Below are positions 1 through 10,125 of a stretch of DNA of 64,000 bases, one piece after another (within the stretch, counting starts at the first letter, position 1; every line of letters begins with the position of its first letter). Origin of the DNA: an uncultured Gammaproteobacteria bacterium (GTDB lineage Bacteria > Patescibacteriota > Microgenomatia > UBA10105 > UBA927); assembly GCA_964397755.1 (NCBI GenBank), contig CAYNJY010000002.1:15620-79619 (forward strand), written 5' to 3'. Position numbers and translations under genes: made by a program. The notes beneath the pieces are model-generated. The model did not search any database, was not told the origin of the DNA, and worked only from the letters and a program-made list of their open reading frames with translations.

Positions 1-228
1 AGCCATAAGAGGGGACAGGTTGATGTGGGCTGCAAGGTGACCCTTCACGCTAACGGCAAGCGAGATGTTTTCACCGTGGTTGGTGAATGGGAAGCAAATC
101 CTAAGGAGAAAAAGATTTCCCACTCCTCGCCGTTGGGGAAGGCCTTACTCGGCAAAAAAGTTGGAGAGGAAGTAGAGGTTGAGGCTCCGGCTGGCAAACT
201 CCTTTATAAGATATTGCATATCGAGTAG
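1..228 (+). CDS. greA: Transcription elongation factor GreA, C-terminal (FKBP-like) part; 5' end lies outside the window
   Basis: The frame is open from position 1. The C-terminus (SPLGKALLGKKVGEEVEVEAPAG) matches the GreA C-terminal domain pattern. Confidence 0.65.
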   Translation, partial: SHKRGQVDVGCKVTLHANGKRDVFTVVGEWEANPKEKKISHSSPLGKALLGKKVGEEVEVEAPAGKLLYKILHIE

Positions 229-242
229 ATTAGTGGTATAGT
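214..242 (+). promoter_or_regulatory. Sigma70-like promoter (TTGCAT, 17 nt spacer, TATAGT) inside the greA 3' end, driving the lys leader
   Basis: TTGCAT at 214-219 and TATAGT at 237-242 are separated by exactly 17 nt. Confidence 0.4.
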
Positions 243-254
243 TTACGGGTTATT

Positions 255-341
255 ATGAGAAGCCAAATTCGATTTGTACATGACAGCAAAAAAGCTAAGA
301 AACGAACCCATCTGAGGAGGGGAAGTATTTTCGTGGTATAA
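255..341 (+). CDS. Candidate 28-aa leader peptide (MRSQIRFVHDSKKAKKRTHLRRGSIFVV) with four Lys codons in five positions; putative lysine attenuator leader
   Basis: The ATG at 255 to the TAA at 339-341 is an uninterrupted ORF. The Lys-codon cluster AAA AAA GCT AAG AAA sits at 288-302, about 20 nt before an intrinsic terminator. Confidence 0.35.
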   Translation: MRSQIRFVHDSKKAKKRTHLRRGSIFVV

Positions 342-361
342 ATCAATAATTTTTACTCGAG

Positions 362-390
362 AAACCCCTCTTTAGGAAGGGGTTTTTTTT
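362..390 (+). terminator. Rho-independent terminator / attenuator hairpin between greA and lysW
   Basis: The stem aaacccct (362-369) pairs with aggggttt (378-385) around an 8-nt loop, followed by a T-run to 390. The upstream GAGGAGGGG (314-322) can pair with CCCCTCTTT (365-373) as an alternative antiterminator. Confidence 0.6.
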
Positions 391-399
391 GTTGAGGGG

Positions 400-588
400 G
401 TGAAGCATATGCATGCACAATGTCCGATATGTGATGCCGAGTTTGAGATTCTTGGGTCAACCGAGGTCACAGAGATTATAAGTTGCCACGAATGTCAGAA
501 TAAGCTGGAAGTGGCGAGCATTCATAAAGATACCAACAGGGCAGAAGTGAAAGAAGCGCCGAAAATAGAAGAAGACTGGGGAGAGTAA
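400..588 (+). CDS. lysW: LysW amino-group carrier protein (likely ATG start at 409)
   Basis: About 60 aa with an N-terminal Zn-ribbon (CPICD...CHEC) and an acidic C-terminus ending EDWGE, the LysW signature. It lies immediately upstream of lysX. Confidence 0.75.
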   Translation: MKHMHAQCPICDAEFEILGSTEVTEIISCHECQNKLEVASIHKDTNRAEVKEAPKIEEDWGE

Positions 589-601
589 TACAATAACAAC
601 T

Positions 602-1465
602 ATGAGAAAGAAAAAAATACGTATTGGAATACTCCATACCACCATACGTGGCGATGAGAAGTTATTGATCGATGCGGCTCAAAACCGCGCTATCGATCTG
701 TCACTTATTGACGTTCGTGAGCAGGTCTTTGATCCGCTGGTAGAGCGACCTCGTGTGGATATTGTACTGGAGCGATGTGTGTCGACAGTGAAGGGGATGC
801 ACGCGGTGGATTTCTATGAAAGTCTTGGGATACCCGCGGTGAATCCATTGGTCATTGCCAGAACTTGTGAAAACAAGTTCGTGACGTCCCTTGCGCTCGT
901 TCGTCACCAGGTCCCCACACCGCGTTTTGCGCTGGTGTTTGGCGAGGAGCAGGCCAAAAAGGCCGTTGGTGTGATAGGTGGCTACCCGGCGGTCATAAAA
1001 CCGGTGACGGGTTCGTGGGGAAGACTGATTGCCAGGGTAAATGATGAACACGCACTGGAAGCAGTGCTAGAACAGAAGACGATATTGGGTGGACCGCATC
1101 ATCACGCATTTTATATACAGCAGTTTATAGAGAAACCGGGAAGAGATATCCGGATACACGTTATCGGTGGGCGGGCTGTTGCGGCAATATACCGGACGAG
1201 CAGTCATTGGATTACCAACACCGCGCGAGGAGCGGAAGCTATCGCATGTCCGATAGACAAGGATTTGGGAAAAATCGCAAAAAAAGCAGGGGAGGCGATC
1301 GGGGAAGGGGTATTGGGTATTGATGTTTTTGAAACCAGCGGGGGGTACGTCGTGAATGAAGTGAACCACACCATGGAGTTTAAAAACGTCCAGAGGGTTA
1401 CCGGCATTGATATAGCAGGGATTATCCTGGATTATTGCTTGTCCGTCGTACGGAGGCAGCTATGA
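602..1465 (+). CDS. lysX: LysX/ArgX ATP-grasp ligase (RimK family) that loads the substrate onto the LysW C-terminus
   Basis: RimK-like ATP-grasp sequence. It follows lysW directly, and its stop overlaps the argC start as ATGA. Confidence 0.7.
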   Translation: MRKKKIRIGILHTTIRGDEKLLIDAAQNRAIDLSLIDVREQVFDPLVERPRVDIVLERCVSTVKGMHAVDFYESLGIPAVNPLVIARTCENKFVTSLALVRHQVPTPRFALVFGEEQAKKAVGVIGGYPAVIKPVTGSWGRLIARVNDEHALEAVLEQKTILGGPHHHAFYIQQFIEKPGRDIRIHVIGGRAVAAIYRTSSHWITNTARGAEAIACPIDKDLGKIAKKAGEAIGEGVLGIDVFETSGGYVVNEVNHTMEFKNVQRVTGIDIAGIILDYCLSVVRRQL

Positions 1466-2514
1466 AAGGGAAAATCCGCGTTTCTATCATCGGAGGTTCG
1501 GGGTATGCAGGGGGAGAGCTGTTGCGCATTCTTTTATTTCACCCCCATGTGACCATCCATCAGGTGACGTCGCGGCAGTTTGCCAGCGAGTCGGTGAGCC
1601 GTGCACACCCGAATTTGCGCAAAGTCACTGACCTCATCTTTTGCGATATGGATGATCTGGTGCCCTGTGACGTGCTTTTCGTCGCGCTGCCTAATGGCGT
1701 TTCCATGAGTTACATGAAGGAATTTGTGCAAAAGGCCGAGTATATTGTAGATTTGGGAGCAGATTTTCGATTGAAAAATCCAAGCACGTTCGCCCATTGG
1801 TATCGCACCGCGCATCTGCTGCCAGAACTCCTGCCGCGATTTATCTATGGCATCGCAGAACTTCGTAGAAAGGAACTGAAAAAGGCTACATACGCCGCCT
1901 GCGCCGGTTGTGAGGCAACGGTTTCTATTCTGACACTCTATCCGTTGGTGAAACATCGGCTTATCGAGGTTGATCGGATCATCGTCGACGCAAAAATGAG
2001 CAGTTCCCAGGGCGGAAATACGCCGAGCCTTGCATCACACCACCCGGAACGCCACGGAGTCGTCCGGTCATACAAACCCACGGACCACCGCCATAGCGCC
2101 GAGATAGAACAGGAATTGTCCGTTTATGATGATCATATCCGTGTGTCTGTTTCGGCGACGACCATAGAAATGGTGCGGGGGCTTCTCGTCACTATCCATG
2201 TAGTGCCCAAGGGCGATGTCACCGAGAAAGATGTATGGACAGCGTACAGAACGGAATATCAGAACGAGCCATTTATACGAATCGTGAAAGAACGGGAGGG
2301 AATCTACCGTTACCCTGAGCCAAAGCTCCTTATCGGTACAAATTACTGCGATATAGGATTTGCCTTGAGCAAGCGGGAGAACCGGCTGGTGGCCATAGGC
2401 GCCATAGACAACCTTGGGAAAGGAACCGCCGGTCAGGGTGTCCAAGCGATGAATATCATGCTCGGTTTTGACGAACGGGCCGGACTGTCGTTCCCCGGCA
2501 TACATCCGGTGTGA
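1462..2514 (+). CDS. argC: N-acetyl-gamma-glutamyl-phosphate reductase family (LysY/ArgC)
   Basis: An NAD-binding GGSGYAGGELLR N-terminus and ArgC-like length. A GGAGG RBS precedes the ATG at 1462. Confidence 0.8.
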   Translation: MKGKIRVSIIGGSGYAGGELLRILLFHPHVTIHQVTSRQFASESVSRAHPNLRKVTDLIFCDMDDLVPCDVLFVALPNGVSMSYMKEFVQKAEYIVDLGADFRLKNPSTFAHWYRTAHLLPELLPRFIYGIAELRRKELKKATYAACAGCEATVSILTLYPLVKHRLIEVDRIIVDAKMSSSQGGNTPSLASHHPERHGVVRSYKPTDHRHSAEIEQELSVYDDHIRVSVSATTIEMVRGLLVTIHVVPKGDVTEKDVWTAYRTEYQNEPFIRIVKEREGIYRYPEPKLLIGTNYCDIGFALSKRENRLVAIGAIDNLGKGTAGQGVQAMNIMLGFDERAGLSFPGIHPV

Positions 2515-2518
2515 AGCT

Positions 2519-3313
2519 ATGATTATTCTAAAAGTCGGTGGGGGTAAAGCTATGAACTGGGAATATATAGCGGAAGATGTCAACGCCTTGCAAGAGGATG
2601 TGATCATCGTGCATGGAGCCAACGCATATGCCTCAGAGATAGCAGAAAAACTCGGGGTTAAAGAAACAGTTATCATGTCTCCTTCCGGACACACCAGTCG
2701 ATACACGGATAAGGAAGCCATGGATGTTTTGACCATGACGTATGCCGGATTGGTAAACAAGACGATCGTTTCTGTCTTAAGGAGACACAAGATCAATGCG
2801 GTTGGCCTCTGCGGAGCAGACGGCGGGGTTTGGATGGGGAAGAGGAAGCACGCCATTTTATCCCAGGAAAACGGAAAGGTGAAAGTTATCCGTGATTCTC
2901 TGACCGGTAACGTCGAGTCAGTGAATAGGAGTCTTATCATGCTTCTTGTCGATCACAAATATACACCGGTGCTCACGATACCGGCGATCACGCGGGAAGG
3001 GGAGCTTATCAACGTAGACAACGATCGGGCGGTTGCCGTTATGGCCCGGGATTTAGCGGTCAAGAAGATCGTCATGTTGTTTGAGGCGCCGGGATTACTG
3101 CGCGACAGGAGCGACGAATCGACGAAAGTTGCACATATCAGGAAAGATGAGATCGATATGTATATCCATAAGGTAGAGGGAAGGATGCGCAAAAAGCTCC
3201 TCGGTATCAAAGAAGCATTTTTGTTCGGGGTGACCGACGTGTATTTGGGCGACGGCAGGATCGCGCATCCGATCGCGAGTGCTTTGTCCGGTGCCGGAAC
3301 GGTTATCCAATAA
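2519..3313 (+). CDS. argB: Acetylglutamate kinase family (LysZ/ArgB)
   Basis: An amino-acid kinase fold with the N-terminus MIILKVGGG. The listed ORF starts at 2468, but the ATG at 2519 immediately after the argC stop is more likely. Confidence 0.75.
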   Translation: MIILKVGGGKAMNWEYIAEDVNALQEDVIIVHGANAYASEIAEKLGVKETVIMSPSGHTSRYTDKEAMDVLTMTYAGLVNKTIVSVLRRHKINAVGLCGADGGVWMGKRKHAILSQENGKVKVIRDSLTGNVESVNRSLIMLLVDHKYTPVLTIPAITREGELINVDNDRAVAVMARDLAVKKIVMLFEAPGLLRDRSDESTKVAHIRKDEIDMYIHKVEGRMRKKLLGIKEAFLFGVTDVYLGDGRIAHPIASALSGAGTVIQ

Positions 3314-3316
3314 ATT

Positions 3317-4477
3317 ATGAGTGCTTCATCGCCAAAAAATTATTTTGTTGCCTCTTACCCGGATCGGGGTGTCGCGTTTGCCGGTGGCGAGGGCATGTAT
3401 CTTACGGAAAAGAGAGGCACCAAGTACTTGGATTTCGGCAGCAACTACGGCGTGAGTATATTCGGGTATAACCACCCGAGAATTACTCGGGCCCTCTCTG
3501 ACCAGTTGCATCGGCTCGTGAGCCTGCACGGTTCGTTTGGAAACGATGTACGGCAAGAGGCAGCCAGACGCTTGGTCGAGCGTTGCGGCGGAAAGATTTC
3601 CAAGGTGTTTTTTTCTAATTCCGGGTCTGAGGCCATGGAAGCGGCGCTGAAGTTTACTAAACTTTTCACCGGTACCTCACGCTTTGTTGCTTTCCGAAAT
3701 AGCTATCACGGCAAAACGCTCGGTTCCCTTTCCGCCACATCAGGTGAAAAATATCGTCAGGCATTTGAGCCTCTCTTGTGGCACTTTACTCATGTCCAGC
3801 TTGGTGACAAAAAAAGCCTGGAAGAAGCTGTAAAGGGAGAGATCGCCGCGATCATTTTAGAACCAGTACAGGGAGAAGGAGGCCTCTACGCCGCGCCGGC
3901 AGGGTACCTGGAATATCTTCAGGCATTGTGTAGCGAAAGAAACATCCTATTGATTGTTGATGAGATACAATGCGGCACAGGGAGAACCGGCACGTTTTTG
4001 GCAAGCCAGCTGTATGGGCTGGCGCCGGACATCATGTGCCTCGGCAAGGGTATAGCAGGAGGGGTCCCTGTAGGAGTAACATTGGTGAGCGAATCTGTGG
4101 CAGAACGTATTCCTGTTCACGTGCATACCTCCACGTTCGGTGGTAATCCCTTAGCGTGTGCAGGCATCGTCGCCGTGCTTAAAGAGTTTGAAGATGGTGC
4201 GTTACTCAAGCACGTTGGCGATATGGGTGCATATTTTCTCCGGCAACTGAAGACCCTGACTCATCCGAGCATTGTTGACGTACGCGGCGTTGGTCTGATG
4301 CTCGGAATAGAACTGCGTGAGAATGTCACGCCAGTTTTAAAAGCGCTCCAGGATCGTCGCATTATTGCCATTCCCGCCGGGTCGCATATCGTTCGCTTCC
4401 TTCCGCCGTATATCGTCACTAAACAAGATATAGATACGGTTACGGCAGCACTCAAAAACATATTTCAACAGTTGTAA
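3317..4477 (+). CDS. argD: Acetylornithine / LysW-gamma-L-lysine aminotransferase (class III PLP aminotransferase, LysJ/ArgD)
   Basis: A class-III aminotransferase with the motifs GNHPR...DEIQCGTGRTG...LGKG. Confidence 0.8.
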   Translation: MSASSPKNYFVASYPDRGVAFAGGEGMYLTEKRGTKYLDFGSNYGVSIFGYNHPRITRALSDQLHRLVSLHGSFGNDVRQEAARRLVERCGGKISKVFFSNSGSEAMEAALKFTKLFTGTSRFVAFRNSYHGKTLGSLSATSGEKYRQAFEPLLWHFTHVQLGDKKSLEEAVKGEIAAIILEPVQGEGGLYAAPAGYLEYLQALCSERNILLIVDEIQCGTGRTGTFLASQLYGLAPDIMCLGKGIAGGVPVGVTLVSESVAERIPVHVHTSTFGGNPLACAGIVAVLKEFEDGALLKHVGDMGAYFLRQLKTLTHPSIVDVRGVGLMLGIELRENVTPVLKALQDRRIIAIPAGSHIVRFLPPYIVTKQDIDTVTAALKNIFQQL

Positions 4478-4487
4478 TAACGCCACT

Positions 4488-5150
4488 ATGTGTAGGTTTC
4501 TCCTCGTTCGATCCAAAAAAAGGCTGTACCCAGGGACATTGCTCCAGGCATTCGCCGGGATGTGTCAGAAAAGTCACGCGCCGGATGGAGATTGGCAGGG
4601 CGACGGGTGGGGTGTGGCGTGGAAAGAAGGTGATCATTGGCAGCTTATGAAATCTCTCGCGCCGATATGGGAGGAAGAGGATCGTTTTTCCTCTATCGGA
4701 CAATCACATATTTTTGTAGCTCACGCCAGAAGCGCAGGCTTTCCACAGCATAAGGGAGTTCTTGCGTATAACCAACCCTATATTCATAACGAGCTCGCGT
4801 ATGTATTTAACGGCATGATGCGAGGGGTCGCATTGTCGATAAACGTGCCGGGGAATATCGGCGCCCAAAAAATATTCTCCTTAATCGTCAATGCCGCAAG
4901 CAGAAATAGGCCGGACGAATCTTTGTCCTACGTGCGGGATTTACTGCGAAGACATACAAAAAAGACTGAAGGGATGAATATAGGTCTCGTCCTGGGGGAT
5001 ACGCTGTATGCGCTTTGTGATTATGAGAACAATCCTGACTATTTCAGTCTTCGTTACTATGCAGATGAGAAGTTCACCCTGATTTGTTCAGAGCCAATCG
5101 GCGCTTATGAGTGGAGAATTATGGGTAAAGGTGAAATACTTACATTCTAA
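4488..5150 (+). CDS. Class-II (Ntn) glutamine amidotransferase-like hydrolase, EgtC/YafJ-like
   Basis: Starts Met-Cys (MCRFLL), the Ntn nucleophile position. DGWGVAW, HARSAGF and YNQPY resemble the GATase_4/6 / EgtC family. It is the last gene of the lysW operon. Confidence 0.55.
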   Translation: MCRFLLVRSKKRLYPGTLLQAFAGMCQKSHAPDGDWQGDGWGVAWKEGDHWQLMKSLAPIWEEEDRFSSIGQSHIFVAHARSAGFPQHKGVLAYNQPYIHNELAYVFNGMMRGVALSINVPGNIGAQKIFSLIVNAASRNRPDESLSYVRDLLRRHTKKTEGMNIGLVLGDTLYALCDYENNPDYFSLRYYADEKFTLICSEPIGAYEWRIMGKGEILTF

Positions 5151-5188
5151 ATACCTAAAGAGGGTTAGTTTAGTTATAATGGGACTAT

Positions 5189-6640
5189 ATGGTAACCATC
5201 GATGAGTTGAAAAAAACACGTTTGGAAAAACTGGAAGCCCTTAAAAAACGTGGAGTTGATCCGTATCCAGGTAAAGCTTTACGCAAGCAAACCATCAAAG
5301 AGGCGCGTAGCAGTAGGGGAGAGGTTTCCGTGGCCGGTCGGGTGGTGGGGCTCCGCGGGCACGGGAAGATCGTGTTTACGGATTTGACGGATGAGACAGG
5401 GAAAATCCAGTTGGTTTTTAAGGCCGACAGCCTTGATCAAAAGATATATAGCTTCCTTGAGTTCATCGACATCGGTGACTTTCTGGACGTCCAAGGGGAG
5501 GTCGGCAAAACGCAAGCCGGCGAGGTGTCGGTTTTTGCGAAAAACTTCCAGATTATCACAAAGGCCCTTCGCCCCCTGCCTGACCAGTGGTCAGGTTTCA
5601 AAGATGTCGAAGAGCGCTACCGGCAACGCTACGTGGATCTCCTGATGAACCCTGACGTGCGGGAGATTTTCGTCAAGCGAGCCAACGTGATTCGGTTTTT
5701 ACAAGAGTATCTTTACAAAGAAGGGTTCATGGAGGTGGAGACACCGGTTTTACAGTCTATTTACGGCGGAGCCGCGGCTAAGCCATTCACCACCCACCAT
5801 AATGCTTTGGACATCGATTTTTACCTGCGCATTTCCGATGAGTTGTACTTAAAACGATTGATCATTGGAGGATTTGAAAAAGTGTACGAAATCGGCAAAG
5901 ACTTTCGCAACGAAGGCGTCGATCGGAATCACAACCCGGAGTTTACGATGCTTGAGTTTTACTGGGCGTATGCCGATTACGAGAAGCTCATGGAGTTTAC
6001 CGAGGGTATGTTTGCGGCGCTCCTTACGGCAGTGCATGGCTCTCTGGTCCTGGAATATCAAGGAAAGCAGCTTGATTTTACCCCGCCCTGGCCGCGGGTA
6101 ACCTATAGGCAAGCGCTCCTGAAGCACACGGGTATAGATATTGATGAGGCCGATACCGCAGAAAAACTAAAAAAATTCGTCAAAGAGGAGGGGATCGCTT
6201 TTGATGAGAAGAGAACCGTTGGTTACGGGGCGCTCCTTGATGCGCTGTATAAACAAACGACGCGAGCACACCTTGCAGGCCCACTTTTTCTTACCGAGCG
6301 GCCGACAGCCTTTGTCTCGCTGGCTAAACGATTGTCGACTGATCCGCGGAAAACTGCATCCTTTCAGCTTTTGGTTGCCGGCGAGGAACTGATTAATGCG
6401 TACAACGAACTTAACGATCCGCAAGATCAGGCTGACCGCTGGCGGGCGTCCGAGAAACTTGGGAAAAAGGGGCAAAGGGAGCATGAGGCCTTTGATAAAG
6501 ACTATATCCGGGCGCTTGAATACGGTATGCCGCCGACTGCCGGATGGGGACTGGGGATAGATAGGCTAGTCGCTATCTTGACCAATCAACGCTCCATTAA
6601 AGACGTCATCCTGTTTTCTACGCTTCGACCTGAGAAATAA
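5189..6640 (+). CDS. lysS: Lysyl-tRNA synthetase, class II
   Basis: Full length (483 aa) with an N-terminal OB anticodon-binding domain plus the class-II core (FRNEG, GGAAAKPF, GLGIDRL). Confidence 0.9.
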   Translation: MVTIDELKKTRLEKLEALKKRGVDPYPGKALRKQTIKEARSSRGEVSVAGRVVGLRGHGKIVFTDLTDETGKIQLVFKADSLDQKIYSFLEFIDIGDFLDVQGEVGKTQAGEVSVFAKNFQIITKALRPLPDQWSGFKDVEERYRQRYVDLLMNPDVREIFVKRANVIRFLQEYLYKEGFMEVETPVLQSIYGGAAAKPFTTHHNALDIDFYLRISDELYLKRLIIGGFEKVYEIGKDFRNEGVDRNHNPEFTMLEFYWAYADYEKLMEFTEGMFAALLTAVHGSLVLEYQGKQLDFTPPWPRVTYRQALLKHTGIDIDEADTAEKLKKFVKEEGIAFDEKRTVGYGALLDALYKQTTRAHLAGPLFLTERPTAFVSLAKRLSTDPRKTASFQLLVAGEELINAYNELNDPQDQADRWRASEKLGKKGQREHEAFDKDYIRALEYGMPPTAGWGLGIDRLVAILTNQRSIKDVILFSTLRPEK

Positions 6641-6696
6641 CCGCGATACCAATATACCTACCTGCCTGCCGGTAGGCAGGCGAATGTAGACAAGTT

Positions 6697-7263
6697 ATGG
6701 ATAGACAAGAAGCGTATCAACTGGTTACCTCGTGGACGAAGAACCCAAACCTCGTCAAACATATGCTCGCGGTTGAGGCGATCATGCGGGTGCTCGCTCG
6801 GCACTTCGAGGAAGATGAGGAAGTATGGGGGATGGCTGGGCTTCTTCATGATGCGGATTACGAGATGTTTAAGGATATTGATCCCAAGAAGCATCCTTCA
6901 AGGGTTTTTGAAGAACTAGAGAAGCGCCAAGCTGATCCACGAATAATTCAAGCCATCCGAGCCCACGCCTGGGGATGGCGAGACGATTTGCCACAGCCGC
7001 AAACGAAGATGGAGTGGTCGCTTTACTGCTGCGATGACCTTTCGGGCTTCATCATCGCTTGTGCCCTAGTGCGGCCTGACCGGAAACTTGCCTCGTTGAC
7101 TGTTGAGTCTATTCGCAAGAAATGGCCACAGAAGTCCTTTGCTGCGGGTGTGAAACGGGAACAGGTCGAGTTGTGTCAAGAGAAATTAGCCATACCACTG
7201 TCTGAGTTTACAGAGCTCACGCTGGCAGCTATGCAGAGCATCCACGAAGGACTCGGTCTGTAA
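6697..7263 (+). CDS. HD-domain metal-dependent phosphohydrolase
   Basis: Carries an HD motif (LLHDADY) and is about 190 aa. Confidence 0.55.
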   Translation: MDRQEAYQLVTSWTKNPNLVKHMLAVEAIMRVLARHFEEDEEVWGMAGLLHDADYEMFKDIDPKKHPSRVFEELEKRQADPRIIQAIRAHAWGWRDDLPQPQTKMEWSLYCCDDLSGFIIACALVRPDRKLASLTVESIRKKWPQKSFAAGVKREQVELCQEKLAIPLSEFTELTLAAMQSIHEGLGL

Positions 7264-7275
7264 TTTCATGATATC

Positions 7276-7289
7276 ATGTTCTAGAACAT
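7276..7289. promoter_or_regulatory. Palindromic operator-like box ATGTTCTAGAACAT, copy 1, 11 nt upstream of rdgB
   Basis: A perfect 14-bp palindrome. The same 13-mer TGTTCTAGAACAT recurs at 15492-15504. Confidence 0.4.
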
Positions 7290-7299
7290 CGAAACATAA

Positions 7300-7920
7300 A
7301 TGCACAAACTTCTTATTGCAACAACAAATCCCGGGAAATTAGCAGAGATTAAAAGATTTTTGTCTGATCTGGCCCTGGAGCTCGTTAGCCTTAAGGATGT
7401 AGGCATTACTGAAAGAGTCAAGGAGATAGGAAAGACGTTTGAGGAGAACGCTGTCCTTAAGGCAAAATTCTATGCTGAAAAATCGGGTCTCCCTACGCTG
7501 GCTGATGATGGTGGATTTGAGGTTGATGCCCTTGGCGGTGAGCCGGGAGTCAAATCGCATCGCTGGATTCACGGCGATCGCGAAGACGAGGATGAGGAGC
7601 TTATACGGTACACATTTCAGAAAATGAAGGGTTTACCCCGAGCGAAACGAGGTGCCCAATTGCGGTTGGTGCTTGCACTCATACTACCTGATGGATCGAT
7701 CCATACTGTGACCGATGCGGCGCGAGGTGTGATCCCTCTCAAGCCTTCTAACGAGCGCGTTCCCGGTTTTCCGTATCGGTCCATTTTGTATCTTCCCGAT
7801 ATAGGAAAGTTCTACAATCACGATTTGTTAACTGACGAAGAAACAGAGAAGTATAATCACCGCAAACGGGCACTTGATGCATTAAAACCTATACTGCGAA
7901 AGTATTTGACATCAGAATGA
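7300..7920 (+). CDS. rdgB: Non-canonical purine NTP pyrophosphatase (RdgB/Ham1 family)
   Basis: The N-terminus MHKLLIATTNPGKLAE is the Ham1 signature. Confidence 0.8.
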   Translation: MHKLLIATTNPGKLAEIKRFLSDLALELVSLKDVGITERVKEIGKTFEENAVLKAKFYAEKSGLPTLADDGGFEVDALGGEPGVKSHRWIHGDREDEDEELIRYTFQKMKGLPRAKRGAQLRLVLALILPDGSIHTVTDAARGVIPLKPSNERVPGFPYRSILYLPDIGKFYNHDLLTDEETEKYNHRKRALDALKPILRKYLTSE

Positions 7921-7934
7921 TGCATACGTATAAT
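7906..7934 (+). promoter_or_regulatory. Near-consensus sigma70 promoter (TTGACA, 17 nt spacer, TATAAT) launching a roughly 270-nt 5' leader
   Basis: TTGACA at 7906-7911 and TATAAT at 7929-7934 are separated by exactly 17 nt. Confidence 0.55.
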
Positions 7935-7940
7935 ACGTTT

Positions 7941-8208
7941 ATTAACAACGTATAAAAGCGTTTACATACCGAACTTTCCCTCGGTAGAGTCCTTCGACAA
8001 GCTCAGGATGAACTGCTTGAAGGCACGCAGCTTTCCGGAAGTACTACAACAGGAGTATATAAGGAAAGACGGGATTTCCCGTTATAGAAAAAGAGTTATG
8101 TCGCTATTGACGCGGAGTAACTCATGAGGTTAAGCAGGTGACTGCGTAGCAAAGAAAAGTGGCACCACGAGAACACCTCGTCTTTTCATAAAAAGGAGGT
8201 GTTTTTTT
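7941..8208 (+). promoter_or_regulatory. T-box riboswitch-like leader of the histidine-phosphatase + serS operon
   Basis: Antiterminator: helix A1 GAAAAG (8154-59) pairs with CTTTTC (8182-87), a 7-nt bulge UGGCACC sits at 8160-66, and helix A2 ACGAG (8167-71) pairs with CTCGT (8177-81). A competing terminator runs 8173-8208, with stems at 8173-79 / 8196-8202 and inner 8182-86 / 8191-95, followed by U7. Its 3' arm sequesters the AGGAGG SD. Confidence 0.5.
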
Positions 8209-8844
8209 GTGGGAAAAATGTATCTTGCCAGACACGCGGAGTCAGTCGCCAACACGCAAGGTATGTATCAAGGGCAGACGTACGATACTGGTTTATCAAA
8301 GCTTGGTTTGCAACAAGCGCAATCGCTTGGCCGTCGCTTTCATGGCCTTCACCTTGATCAGGTCGTGACCTCGCCGCTTTGGCGTACGCGGTTGACTGCG
8401 GCAGTCGTAGCAAGAGGGAAGAATATTCCACTTGTGGTAGATAGTCGGATCAGCGAAACAAACCACGGAGCGTGGGAGGGATTGCGGAAAACTTCGGTAG
8501 CGGCCCGCTGGCCGAGGTTATATCGGCAATGGCTACGGTTACCATCGACGGTTCATTTTCCCGGCGGTGAGGCGTTTAGAGAGACGCGCGCACGAGTGCT
8601 TGAGTGGTGGAAATGTGCATTGCGCTATCCTGGCACCCAGCTAGTGGTTACTCATGACAACATTTTGCGGATCATTGTTGCCCAAGTTTTGGGGTTACCG
8701 CTTGATAACATCTGGCAATTCCATGTGTATCCGACCGCGATCACCACAGTTGCCGTTACAGGTGGTAAACCCACTATTAGAACTCTGAACGACACTAGGC
8801 ATGTAGAGGAGTGCGACCAGCGCCTTGCAAAGCACGCGCTTTAG
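8209..8844 (+). CDS. Histidine phosphatase superfamily (phosphoglycerate-mutase-like) protein; possibly a phosphoserine-type phosphatase
   Basis: Has the RHAES catalytic motif near the N-terminus. The start is GTG at 8209 or ATG at 8218. serS follows after 15 nt. Confidence 0.7.
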   Translation: MGKMYLARHAESVANTQGMYQGQTYDTGLSKLGLQQAQSLGRRFHGLHLDQVVTSPLWRTRLTAAVVARGKNIPLVVDSRISETNHGAWEGLRKTSVAARWPRLYRQWLRLPSTVHFPGGEAFRETRARVLEWWKCALRYPGTQLVVTHDNILRIIVAQVLGLPLDNIWQFHVYPTAITTVAVTGGKPTIRTLNDTRHVEECDQRLAKHAL

Positions 8845-8859
8845 ACGTATTCTAAACGT

Positions 8860-10125
8860 ATGTTGGATAGTACATTCATACGAGAACATTTGGAATTGTG
8901 CAAGCAGGCGGCCAAAGACAAGGGTCGAGATATGGACTGGAATGGGCTGCTTTCTCTGGATGATCAGAGAAGGGAGCTCATTGGGAAGGTGGAGGGGCTG
9001 AGAGCGGAGAGGAATGCAATCTCCAATACACAATCTCCAATATCCAATACTAGGGGAAAAGAGATCAAGAAGGAATTGAAGGCATTAGAAGAAGAATTGC
9101 GGGGGGTTGAGGAGAAGTTTGGACTGTTAATGCTGACGGTTCCCAACGTACCGGACAAAAGCGTGCCGGTTGGGAACGATGCATCGGGAAATGTGGAAGT
9201 GAAAAAATGGGGCAAGGTGCCAAAAGTTGATTTTCCCGTCCGCGACCACATAGAACTTGCAAAATCACTGGACCTTATCGACTTTGAACGCGGCGCCAAA
9301 GTGGGTGGTGCGCGGGCATACTTCCTCAAAAACGAGGCCGCCCAGATGGAGCTAGCTCTCATGTGGTATACCCTTCACAAGCTTGTGGGGAAAGGGTATA
9401 TGCCGCTTATCGCTCCATCGTTGGTTCGCGAGTTTACACTCTTTGGCAACGGTCAATTTCCGTGGGGTCGGGAAGAGGTCTATAGGGTTGAGAAAGACGA
9501 TATGTACTTGGCCGGGACTGCAGAGGTTCCCGTAACCGCATACTTCGCGGACGAAGTCCTTGCCGAAAAAGACTTGCCCAAAAAGCTTGTGGCCTTCTCC
9601 CCCTGTTTCCGTCGCGAGGCCGGAAGCTACGGTAAGGATACCAAAGGGGTTTATCGACTACACCAATTCAACAAGATTGAACAAGTAATTGTCTCAACCA
9701 ACGATGTGAACAACTCTCTTACTCTTCATGAGGAGTTATTAGCTAATGCAGAAGAAATTTTGCAAGACCTCGAACTGCCGTACCGGGTGATGCTCATGTG
9801 CACGGGCGAGATGGGCGAGCCGCAGGTGAAGAAGTATGACGTAGAAACGTGGATGCCTAAACGCCGGGCACCAGACGGCGCCCTGGGGGCATATGGGGAG
9901 ACGATGTCGAACTCATTCATGGGGGATTTCCAAGCTCGTAGACTTAAGATCCGGTACAAAGCCAAAGACGGAACGGTTATGTTCTGCCACACGCTCAATA
10001 ACACCGCGATTGCTTCGCCGCGGATTCTTATCGCCATCTTTGAAAACTATCAGCAGAAAGACGGATCTATTAAAATTCCGAAGGTGCTCCAATTCTTCTT
10101 AGGAAAGAAAGAAATTCGTCGATAA
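8860..10125 (+). CDS. serS: Seryl-tRNA synthetase
   Basis: An N-terminal coiled-coil arm plus the class-II core (421 aa). Confidence 0.9.
   Translation: MLDSTFIREHLELCKQAAKDKGRDMDWNGLLSLDDQRRELIGKVEGLRAERNAISNTQSPISNTRGKEIKKELKALEEELRGVEEKFGLLMLTVPNVPDKSVPVGNDASGNVEVKKWGKVPKVDFPVRDHIELAKSLDLIDFERGAKVGGARAYFLKNEAAQMELALMWYTLHKLVGKGYMPLIAPSLVREFTLFGNGQFPWGREEVYRVEKDDMYLAGTAEVPVTAYFADEVLAEKDLPKKLVAFSPCFRREAGSYGKDTKGVYRLHQFNKIEQVIVSTNDVNNSLTLHEELLANAEEILQDLELPYRVMLMCTGEMGEPQVKKYDVETWMPKRRAPDGALGAYGETMSNSFMGDFQARRLKIRYKAKDGTVMFCHTLNNTAIASPRILIAIFENYQQKDGSIKIPKVLQFFLGKKEIRR
9017..9052 (+). repeat. About 14-nt tandem duplication (caatctccaataca / caatctccaatatc / caatact) inside the serS N-terminal arm, encoding ISNTQSPISNT
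   Basis: A direct tandem repeat is read off the sequence. The reading frame is preserved. Confidence 0.6.

Follow-up and report, generated by a model that had tools for sequence, protein, structure and literature searches.

In Thermus thermophilus, the lysine (alpha-aminoadipate) cluster is reportedly controlled by a leader-peptide attenuator upstream of hcs. Classical proteobacterial leaders (trpL, hisL, leuL, thrL, pheL, ilv) combine a series of regulatory codons with 1:2, 2:3 and 3:4 helices that exclude one another, and their intrinsic terminator lies a short distance upstream of the first structural gene. T-boxes (RF00230) and lysine riboswitches (L-box) use the logic of terminator versus antiterminator, with uncharged tRNA-Lys or lysine as the signal. 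Bacteria of the candidate phyla radiation (CPR, Patescibacteria) are usually described as being without amino-acid biosynthesis, and to our knowledge almost nothing is known of their gene regulation. Here we describe a 64,000-nt stretch of DNA (the window, whose positions serve as coordinates below) from a bacterium of the Microgenomates group of CPR, in which a lysW operon lies downstream of greA. The 180-nt intergenic region between greA and lysW very likely contains a ribosome-mediated (leader-peptide) transcription attenuator, which would sense charged tRNA-Lys and control read-through into lysWXYZJ. The lysW operon with its predicted attenuator would be a regulated lysine operon in a CPR organism. 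Judged from its sequence, this leader is an attenuator of a known kind in a new phylum and a new position; since its mechanism is textbook knowledge, it offers limited conceptual surprise.

The greA 3′ end occupies 25–228, with the stop codon at 226–228. Overlapping it, a promoter-like element at 214–242 consists of a −35 hexamer TTGCAT (214–219), a 17-nt spacer and a −10 hexamer TATAGT (237–242), as an earlier note on this DNA had claimed. A TG at 234–235 makes it an extended −10 element, TGgTATAGT (234–242), and the transcription start is predicted near G249. A promoter-like element of the form TTGACA-16..18-(TGn)TAnAAn precedes 10 of the 11 leaders described below. The window promoter was not listed by a scan for consensus promoters, because its −35 hexamer agrees with TTGACA at only 3/6 positions. 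It was retained because its position is conserved in relatives, which have the full TTGACA there, and it aligns with that of the closest related leader (leader A of locus L004).

Downstream of this promoter, a 28-codon open reading frame (ORF) at 255–341 encodes MRSQIRFVHDSKKAKKRTHLRRGSIFVV and ends at a stop codon at 339–341. Its codons 12–16 (288–302) are AAA AAA GCT AAG AAA, reading KKAKK, so that the Lys-codon leader of the earlier note stands. The ATG lies 12 nt past the −10 hexamer, and 8–14 nt past it across the CPR leaders. Therefore, the 5′ untranslated region of the leader mRNA would be 0–7 nt long, without a Shine-Dalgarno (SD) sequence.

The ORF is followed by a strong intrinsic terminator at 362–390, noticed earlier and confirmed by a terminator scan. 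Its stem is formed by 362–371 and 375–385 with a UUA loop, its eight-U run is at 383–390, and its hairpin has a folding free energy of −13.5 kcal/mol. For lysW, starts at both 400 and 409 had been proposed. The ATG at 409, which has an SD sequence (GAGGGGG, 394–400), was taken as the actual start, while the GTG at 400 is merely the start of the longest ORF. The SD sequence begins four bases past the end of the U run, therefore leaving no room for a separate lysW promoter. The ATG is 18 nt past the U run, and therefore lysW would be transcribed by read-through only.

As the earlier note had recognized, GAGGAGGGG (314–322) is complementary to 365–373 in the 5′ arm of the terminator. The antiterminator helix turned out to be longer. 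Its 5′ strand, segment 2 (311–333), contains 311–322 (UCUGAGGAGGGG) and 328–333 (UUUUCG), and its 3′ strand, segment 3 (358–376), contains 365–376 and 358–363 (CGAGAA), respectively. Both helices, 311–322/365–376 and 328–333/358–363, occur within the minimum-free-energy fold, and segment 3 overlaps the terminator 5′ arm. Segment 1 (302–312) is the 5′ strand of a weak 1:2 anti-antiterminator hairpin, in which it pairs with 317–334 in the fold.

The antiterminator excludes the terminator and competes with it. When 249–391 is folded with no ribosome, the antiterminator state has −39.3 kcal/mol, compared with −32.4 kcal/mol when the terminator is enforced. With a ribosome on the Lys codon at 300–302, the two energies are −24.6 and −23.5 kcal/mol, respectively. 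The nascent transcript lacking the terminator 3′ arm folds as the antiterminator with −20.6 kcal/mol, versus −13.5 kcal/mol of the terminator hairpin. The proposal of a competitive antiterminator was thus correct and even understated, as the antiterminator is the ground state. The z-score of the window fold is −2.46. In a shuffle test, the upstream strand was shuffled with the terminator arm fixed, in 500 trials per leader. Sequestration by the antiterminator in the window was equalled by 0/500 shuffles, and sequestration of the terminator arm was equalled by 0–6/500 shuffles in each of the 11 leaders.

We infer the start site, leader translation, ribosome stalling and regulatory outcome as follows. 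Transcription would start from ~249, and the 5′-proximal AUG at 255 would be translated without an SD sequence. When lysine is scarce, the ribosome would pause on the Lys codons at 288–302. A ribosome at 300–302 has its footprint extending to about 312–314, so that segment 1 would be masked. Segment 2, being free, could then pair with 358–376 once this is made, and with the terminator 5′ arm locked, RNA polymerase would proceed into lysW. When lysine is plentiful, the ribosome would pass segment 2 and reach the stop codon, occupying or sterically parting the antiterminator strands while 362–390 is transcribed. The local terminator hairpin would then form, and transcription would stop 18 nt upstream of lysW. 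With the antiterminator as the ground state, it is termination, not read-through, that would need an active translating ribosome.

The same layout is present upstream of lysW in 10 other Microgenomates loci, where the earlier note had suggested looking for a Lys-rich upstream ORF and a terminator. They include L001, L003, L004, L081/L082, L083, L084 and L085, and the more distant L090, L095 and L097. The common layout comprises a promoter, an ATG 8–14 nt past the −10 hexamer, a Lys-rich ORF of 15–28 codons, a C-rich/G-rich hairpin, an antiterminator and a terminator. The leader peptides are MKKDTYKGRKNAKKPLVLEG in L081, MKIDLYKIDRKSAKKPLTLEG in L083, MKIDIYLFRKEAKKPFLVEG in L084, MKQTNYIVNEPKKRPPFIRG in L003, MHKTFIKSEKISNKRPFSIRG in L085, MKFEQFIISESKKRLS in L097, MISQTNPKQKKEKKPFP in L090 and MEIRNIQKKKGKKLL in L095, and those of the lysW copies are MINNFVLLRKGEKKPFYMTGCLL in L001 and MANILTQDTRKPAKRTRQEEGSLLR in L004.

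A covariance model (R1) was built from eight CPR leaders. Its sole match in the window is at 262–390, and it recovers the leaders of L097, L090 and L095 along with two further copies, making 13 CPR copies in all. One of the two (leader A, L004 1853–1977) lies directly after greA and upstream of a 475-aa ORF resembling homocitrate synthase (an hcs-like gene). It encodes MSHLSQNLVNKSKKQTHLRRGISA, the peptide most closely related to that of the window leader, with the frame conserved and synonymous differences. The other (L001 8560–8672; peptide MKINYYKKGKKQGSLNGGYF) lies upstream of another hcs-like gene. The gene order in L004 (1806–3485) is greA, leader A, the hcs-like gene, leader B and lysW. 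The window leader is most like leader A, yet it directly precedes lysW (window 205–395), which looks as if an hcs-like gene and one leader had been lost from the arrangement.

The ORF frame carries the signature of Lys codons. Of the 226 leader residues, 44 (19.5%) are Lys, compared with 6.9% in the window proteins (binomial 3.5e-10, with independence overstated because the sequences are related). Counts of AAA/AAG triplets are 44 in frame with the ORF, versus 25 and 22 out of frame. All 11 leaders have an open ATG frame, and the two alternative frames are almost always interrupted by stops. Within R-K-x-A-K-K, Ala is encoded by GCT, GCG or GCC and the x codon is free, and a run of the K-x-x-K-K type occurs at the equivalent place in all family members. 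The window and leader A of L004 differ synonymously at Leu (CTG/CTA) and Gly (GGA/GGG). No conservation is seen in the nucleotide sequence of the leader's 5′ half, which fits a leader peptide, not an aptamer.

The switch is conserved as well. In masked folds, a ribosome at the last Lys codon yields the antiterminator in 12/13 CPR leaders, the window included, in accord with the earlier claim that a ribosome stalled there leaves the antiterminator segment free. A ribosome at the stop codon yields the terminator in 12/13, the window being the sole exception. The antiterminator pairing is GGGGUUAGU/ACUAACCCC in L003 and L085, GCUUGUUA/UAACGAGC in L001, UUGCU/AGCAA in L004, and GGGGAAGAGGUU/AACUUCUUUCUC in L090, whose terminator stem also differs. 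By sequence comparison, these lineage-specific strands amount to compensatory change. The RNAalifold consensus is the OFF state, made of the 1:2 hairpin and the terminator. In its helices, 90% of cells are paired and 6/11 pairs are double-changed, which was reached by 0/500 shuffles, with the alignment fitted to the model. Column-wise counts of antiterminator pairs on the MAFFT alignment (A1) were unusable, as G runs are offset by one column, and per-sequence folding and shuffling were used instead. A loose detector of a Lys-rich small ORF with a terminator gives 3.84 matches per 100 kb over all loci, true ones included, and matches 19 of 133 lysW upstream regions (~60 kb in total).

Several observations weigh against this attenuator. 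Its main weakness is the absence of a leader SD sequence. The leader ATG is ~6 nt from the predicted start site and thus near-leaderless, unlike lysW of the same organisms, which has a strong SD sequence of the GGAGGTG type. Leader translation would therefore have to be leaderless-like. The −35 hexamer departs from the consensus as described above, and the 1:2 hairpin of the window is weak. Without a ribosome, the antiterminator is the equilibrium state in 9/13 leaders, the window included, and in the energy model the classical behaviour, in which no translation leads to termination, is not predicted. The A-rich composition partly confounds the Lys richness, as does a pairing that the A stretch may form with the U run, and the phylogenetic relatedness of the leader sequences makes the statistics overstate their independence.

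Termination in the window poses a further difficulty. The earlier note had a ribosome at the stop codon cover 314–322, which suits the other 12 of the 13 leaders. In the window, the stop is 17 nt past segment 2, which is not literally covered; the frame is shifted relative to leaders of the L081 type. A ribosome with its A site on 339–341 covers ~324–352, so that 328–333/358–363 is disrupted and 311–322 is spared. The antiterminator persists in the energy model even then, with −30.6 versus −23.8 kcal/mol. On the other hand, the 311–322/365–376 helix would close a 42-nt loop that is threaded through the ribosome and has 2 nt to spare on one side. Steric and kinetic exclusion favoring the local terminator may therefore operate. 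An alternative-frame ORF at 280–315, found in a small-ORF scan, encodes MTAKKLRNEPI with two Lys codons, and its UGA (313–315) abuts segment 2. In the energy model, a ribosome at this stop yields the terminator fold. We infer from the modeled folds that the OFF state in the window must rest either on steric or kinetic interference or on this second ORF. As a conserved leader, the ORF at 280–315 was rejected, since leader A of L004 has no ATG-initiated ORF in that frame.

Could the same elements serve another purpose? The hairpin could be a greA terminator or a leaky insulator, with lysW expressed by constitutive partial read-through and the Lys ORF incidental. No other terminator follows greA, whose transcripts would end at 390, and the weak −35 hexamer of the window would agree with such a role. 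However, greA is 1.3–2 kb away from lysW in L001 and L004, with other genes between them, and the leader and terminator still adjoin lysW. This ties the element to the lysine genes and not to greA. Moreover, copies precede hcs-like genes that do not adjoin greA, and conservation extends to the promoter, the ORF, its Lys codons and the antiterminator, making a role confined to greA very unlikely. Alternatively, the promoter and terminator could delimit a stand-alone small gene for a Lys-rich micropeptide or a small RNA, unrelated to lysW control. In its favor, a 140–200 nt spacer parts the terminator from lysW in L001, L003 and L004. Yet these spacers are hairpin-rich without a good promoter, and lysW is only 18–51 nt past the terminator in the window, L081–L085, L090, L095 and L097. 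The peptide is also unconserved except for the Lys run and residues encoded by the helices, so that we regard a separate gene as extremely improbable.

Another reading keeps the switch and dispenses with the peptide: a metabolite (as in a riboswitch) or an RNA-binding protein would set the switch, and the ORF would be untranslated. The absence of an SD sequence suits it, the switch helices are well supported independently of translation, and the conserved AAGAAAC..CCC..GGGG could be an RNA motif. Against it, no copy belongs to an Rfam family, and nothing aptamer-like is conserved, with the 5′ half of the leader variable at the nucleotide level. The ATG frame is always open with the A-rich tract read as Lys, variation at Ala, Leu and Gly codons is synonymous, and the distance from the −10 hexamer to the ATG is fixed at 8–14 nt. 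Leaders of Chloroflexi and Thermus, which are unrelated, have only the Lys-codon run in common with those of CPR. An RNA-only switch is accordingly quite unlikely, and a ribosome-mediated attenuator reading Lys codons is preferred.

The structured spacers are a feature of their own. Segments of 140–200 nt lie between the attenuator terminator and lysW at L001 3669–3813, L003 3676–3814, L004 3621–3819 and L143 21–157. Their fold energies are −45 to −87 kcal/mol, and no such spacer is present in the window or L081–L085. Neither an Rfam match nor a good promoter was found in these four spacers, and no candidate for a separate lysW promoter in those of L001, L003 and L004 was convincing. The spacer could be an insertion resembling a repeat or a miniature inverted-repeat transposable element (MITE), or a second RNA element.

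Lys leaders are not confined to CPR. Eight Chloroflexi loci, from metagenome-assembled genomes (MAGs) of Anaerolineae and Phototrophicales, have one or two Lys-rich leader ORFs upstream of lysW, each followed by a terminator. The leaders are in tandem in five loci (L058, L059, L076, L077 and L079), about 350 nt upstream of lysW, and single in L066, L068 and L080. Examples are MFYTSDKKAKKNIT and MTSYTIIITKKQIKKPKRPFWSA, and others contain ...DKKAKK... or ...KKQIKKPKRPFWSA. The leader of the first type has a comparable antiterminator. In the second leader, a peptide ...KKQxKKPKRPFWSA is conserved, and the sequence coding for it, CCCUUCUGG, has its complement, CCAGAAGGG, within the terminator. 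A possible SD sequence was seen in at least one Chloroflexi leader, while a near-leaderless design was seen in 10/11 CPR leaders and in Thermus.

In the Thermus loci L060, L063, L064, L067 and L070, MLAREKKLRRGGAG and a terminator lie upstream of hcs. We take this leader to be the experimentally characterized Thermus attenuator. It resembles the window element in its short ORF, where Lys codons occur in tandem, in the G-rich segment and intrinsic terminator that come next, in the position of the ATG about 8–12 nt past the −10 hexamer, and in controlling lysine genes of the alpha-aminoadipate/LysW type. KK...LRRG is common to both peptides, and the further copies in L004 and L001 also precede an hcs-like gene. 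On the other hand, the window host is a Microgenomates (CPR) bacterium with ~37–40% GC, the window element immediately precedes lysW and not hcs, its Lys codons number four instead of two, and its stop codon is beyond the antiterminator strand, whereas the Thermus stop is inside it. When applied to the Thermus loci L060, L062–L065, L067, L069, L070 and L073–L075, the covariance model found nothing at E<=1. By analogy, the window element would work like the Thermus leader, as the earlier note had surmised; in-frame Lys codons, exclusive helices and lineage-specific compensatory sequences support this. The likeness is confined to KK...LRRG and the overall design, and it may reflect either descent or convergence.

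Compared with the proteobacterial leaders, the window element shares the regulatory codon run, the exclusive helices and the terminator placed just upstream of the first structural gene. It differs in that lysine is sensed and in that the CPR leaders are near-leaderless without an SD sequence. The antiterminator is the thermodynamic default, and the superattenuation of untranslated trp-type leaders is not expected. With the T-box and L-box it has the terminator-versus-antiterminator logic in common, but the region of ~140 nt is too short for them and lacks their conserved cores. No T-box was matched in window 1–1200 even at E<=10, and no lysine riboswitch was matched at 200–410 at the gathering or E-value threshold. 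Rfam searches of the window and 29 loci at gathering and permissive thresholds assigned no family to any leader, their matches being tRNAs, one cobalamin riboswitch and sub-threshold T-boxes only. Full-text searches of the literature turned up no account of Lys leaders from CPR or Chloroflexi.

We see an even chance that the window element represents a broad, uncatalogued class of Lys-codon leader attenuators guarding LysW/alpha-aminoadipate lysine genes, with members in no fewer than three distant phyla (Microgenomates/CPR, Chloroflexi and Deinococcus-Thermus). Such a class would often be leaderless or nearly so, with a KK-x-x-KK(P) run and default read-through, and termination would need a ribosome at the stop codon. 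It could become an Rfam family useful for annotation.

Homology alone does not decide whether a LysW system makes lysine or ornithine/arginine, and a Lys-codon leader provides a function-independent pointer to lysine, as its regulatory codons are Lys codons. The earlier note had argued for lysine on this ground, and other observations agree with it. In L149, a Microgenomates relative, a T-box lies between greA and lysW at 589–852 (89.2 bits, E 3.5e-20; Rfam cut-off 93). Its specifier loop, GAA-AAG-A, reads AAG (Lys). Lys is likelier than Arg here because the AGA register puts a pyrimidine at the conserved purine position. Leader copies precede hcs-like genes in L004 and L001, the L003 operon has hcs-like and HacA-family genes after lysY, and in many relatives an hcs-like gene separates lysY from lysZ. 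In the window, lysS lies downstream in the same direction as the lysW operon. On the other hand, no hcs homologue was found in the 64-kb window, which counts against the lysine assignment. On sequence evidence, these several independent lines point to a LysW system serving lysine rather than ornithine/arginine. If the proposed leader class is real, its leaders could be usable as a sequence-only marker separating lysine-making from arginine-making LysW systems, and they would indicate that certain CPR bacteria produce lysine and also sense the charging of tRNA-Lys.

Not all relatives have a leader peptide upstream of lysW. In L149 and L007, a T-box takes the place of the leader-peptide attenuator. 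The L007 T-box (38–236) has a truncated 5′ end, contains repeated CCCGATTTAATCGGG hairpins that interrupt it, and has no readable specifier. Eight loci (L005, L006, L009, L011, L013, L031, L144 and L145) have neither a leader nor a T-box. There, a divergently transcribed gene of ~219 aa abuts lysW (e.g., L011 3057–3716, minus strand). Its product has no Pfam match, and the intergenic region shared with lysW is AT-rich with TTAACA...TGTAAATA-like repeats. This product may be an uncharacterized regulator of the operon. The relatives thus form a natural comparison set of leader peptide, Lys T-box, or a divergent gene beside lysW with a presumed regulatory role.

The genes from greA to lysS, in window 1–7900, are all on the plus strand and were called by NCBIfam profile matches, including GreA for 25–228 and LysW for 409–588 (stop codon 586–588). 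Pfam Zn_ribbon_LysW is annotated for lysW on an identical public contig. Downstream are lysX (602–1465), the argC-like lysY (to 2514), the argB-like lysZ (to 3313), the argD-like lysJ (3317–4477), a class-II amidotransferase-like gene encoding 220 aa (4488–5150), and lysS for lysyl-tRNA ligase (5189–6640). No convincing terminator was found downstream of lysW before 7900. Read-through control probably extends to the amidotransferase-like gene and lysS, and the genes from lysX to lysS (602–6640) are probably under attenuator control.

The protein encoded at 4488–5150 resembles class-II glutamine amidotransferases and N-terminal-nucleophile (Ntn) hydrolases, with weak EgtC and GATase_4 matches and no sequence match in PDB. 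L001, L004 and L090 keep its gene at the equivalent position. No M20 deacylase of the LysK type was seen in the operon, and the amidotransferase-like protein might be a non-orthologous replacement releasing lysine from LysW-gamma-lysine.

The host lineage was read from LysX. Its closest relatives, with identity up to 84%, are on metagenome contigs and in MAGs, and the credibly labeled ones belong to Gottesmanbacteria, Roizmanbacteria and Levyibacteria of the Microgenomates group. An identical LysX is on a contig assembled from run ERR3478686. Several MAGs from third-party assembly (TPA; L001, L002, L003, L008–L010 and others) have Microgenomates-like LysX, greA and gene order and carry 'uncultured Gammaproteobacteria' labels, and records of other such relatives are labeled 'Thermoplasmatales' or 'Halobacteriales'. 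These labels are probably mistaken.

Farther downstream, a perfect consensus promoter (TTGACA-17-TATAAT, 7906–7934) precedes a diverged T-box leader at 7952–8188 (RF00230, 53.8 bits, E 3.6e-11), followed by a terminator-like hairpin at 8167–8181. This region (7906–8208) is just upstream of a histidine-phosphatase/PspA-like gene (8209–8844) and then serS (8860–10125). The specifier loop may tentatively be read as GAA-GGC-A. The match does not reach the gathering score of 93; T-boxes of this lineage fall below the Rfam cut-off.

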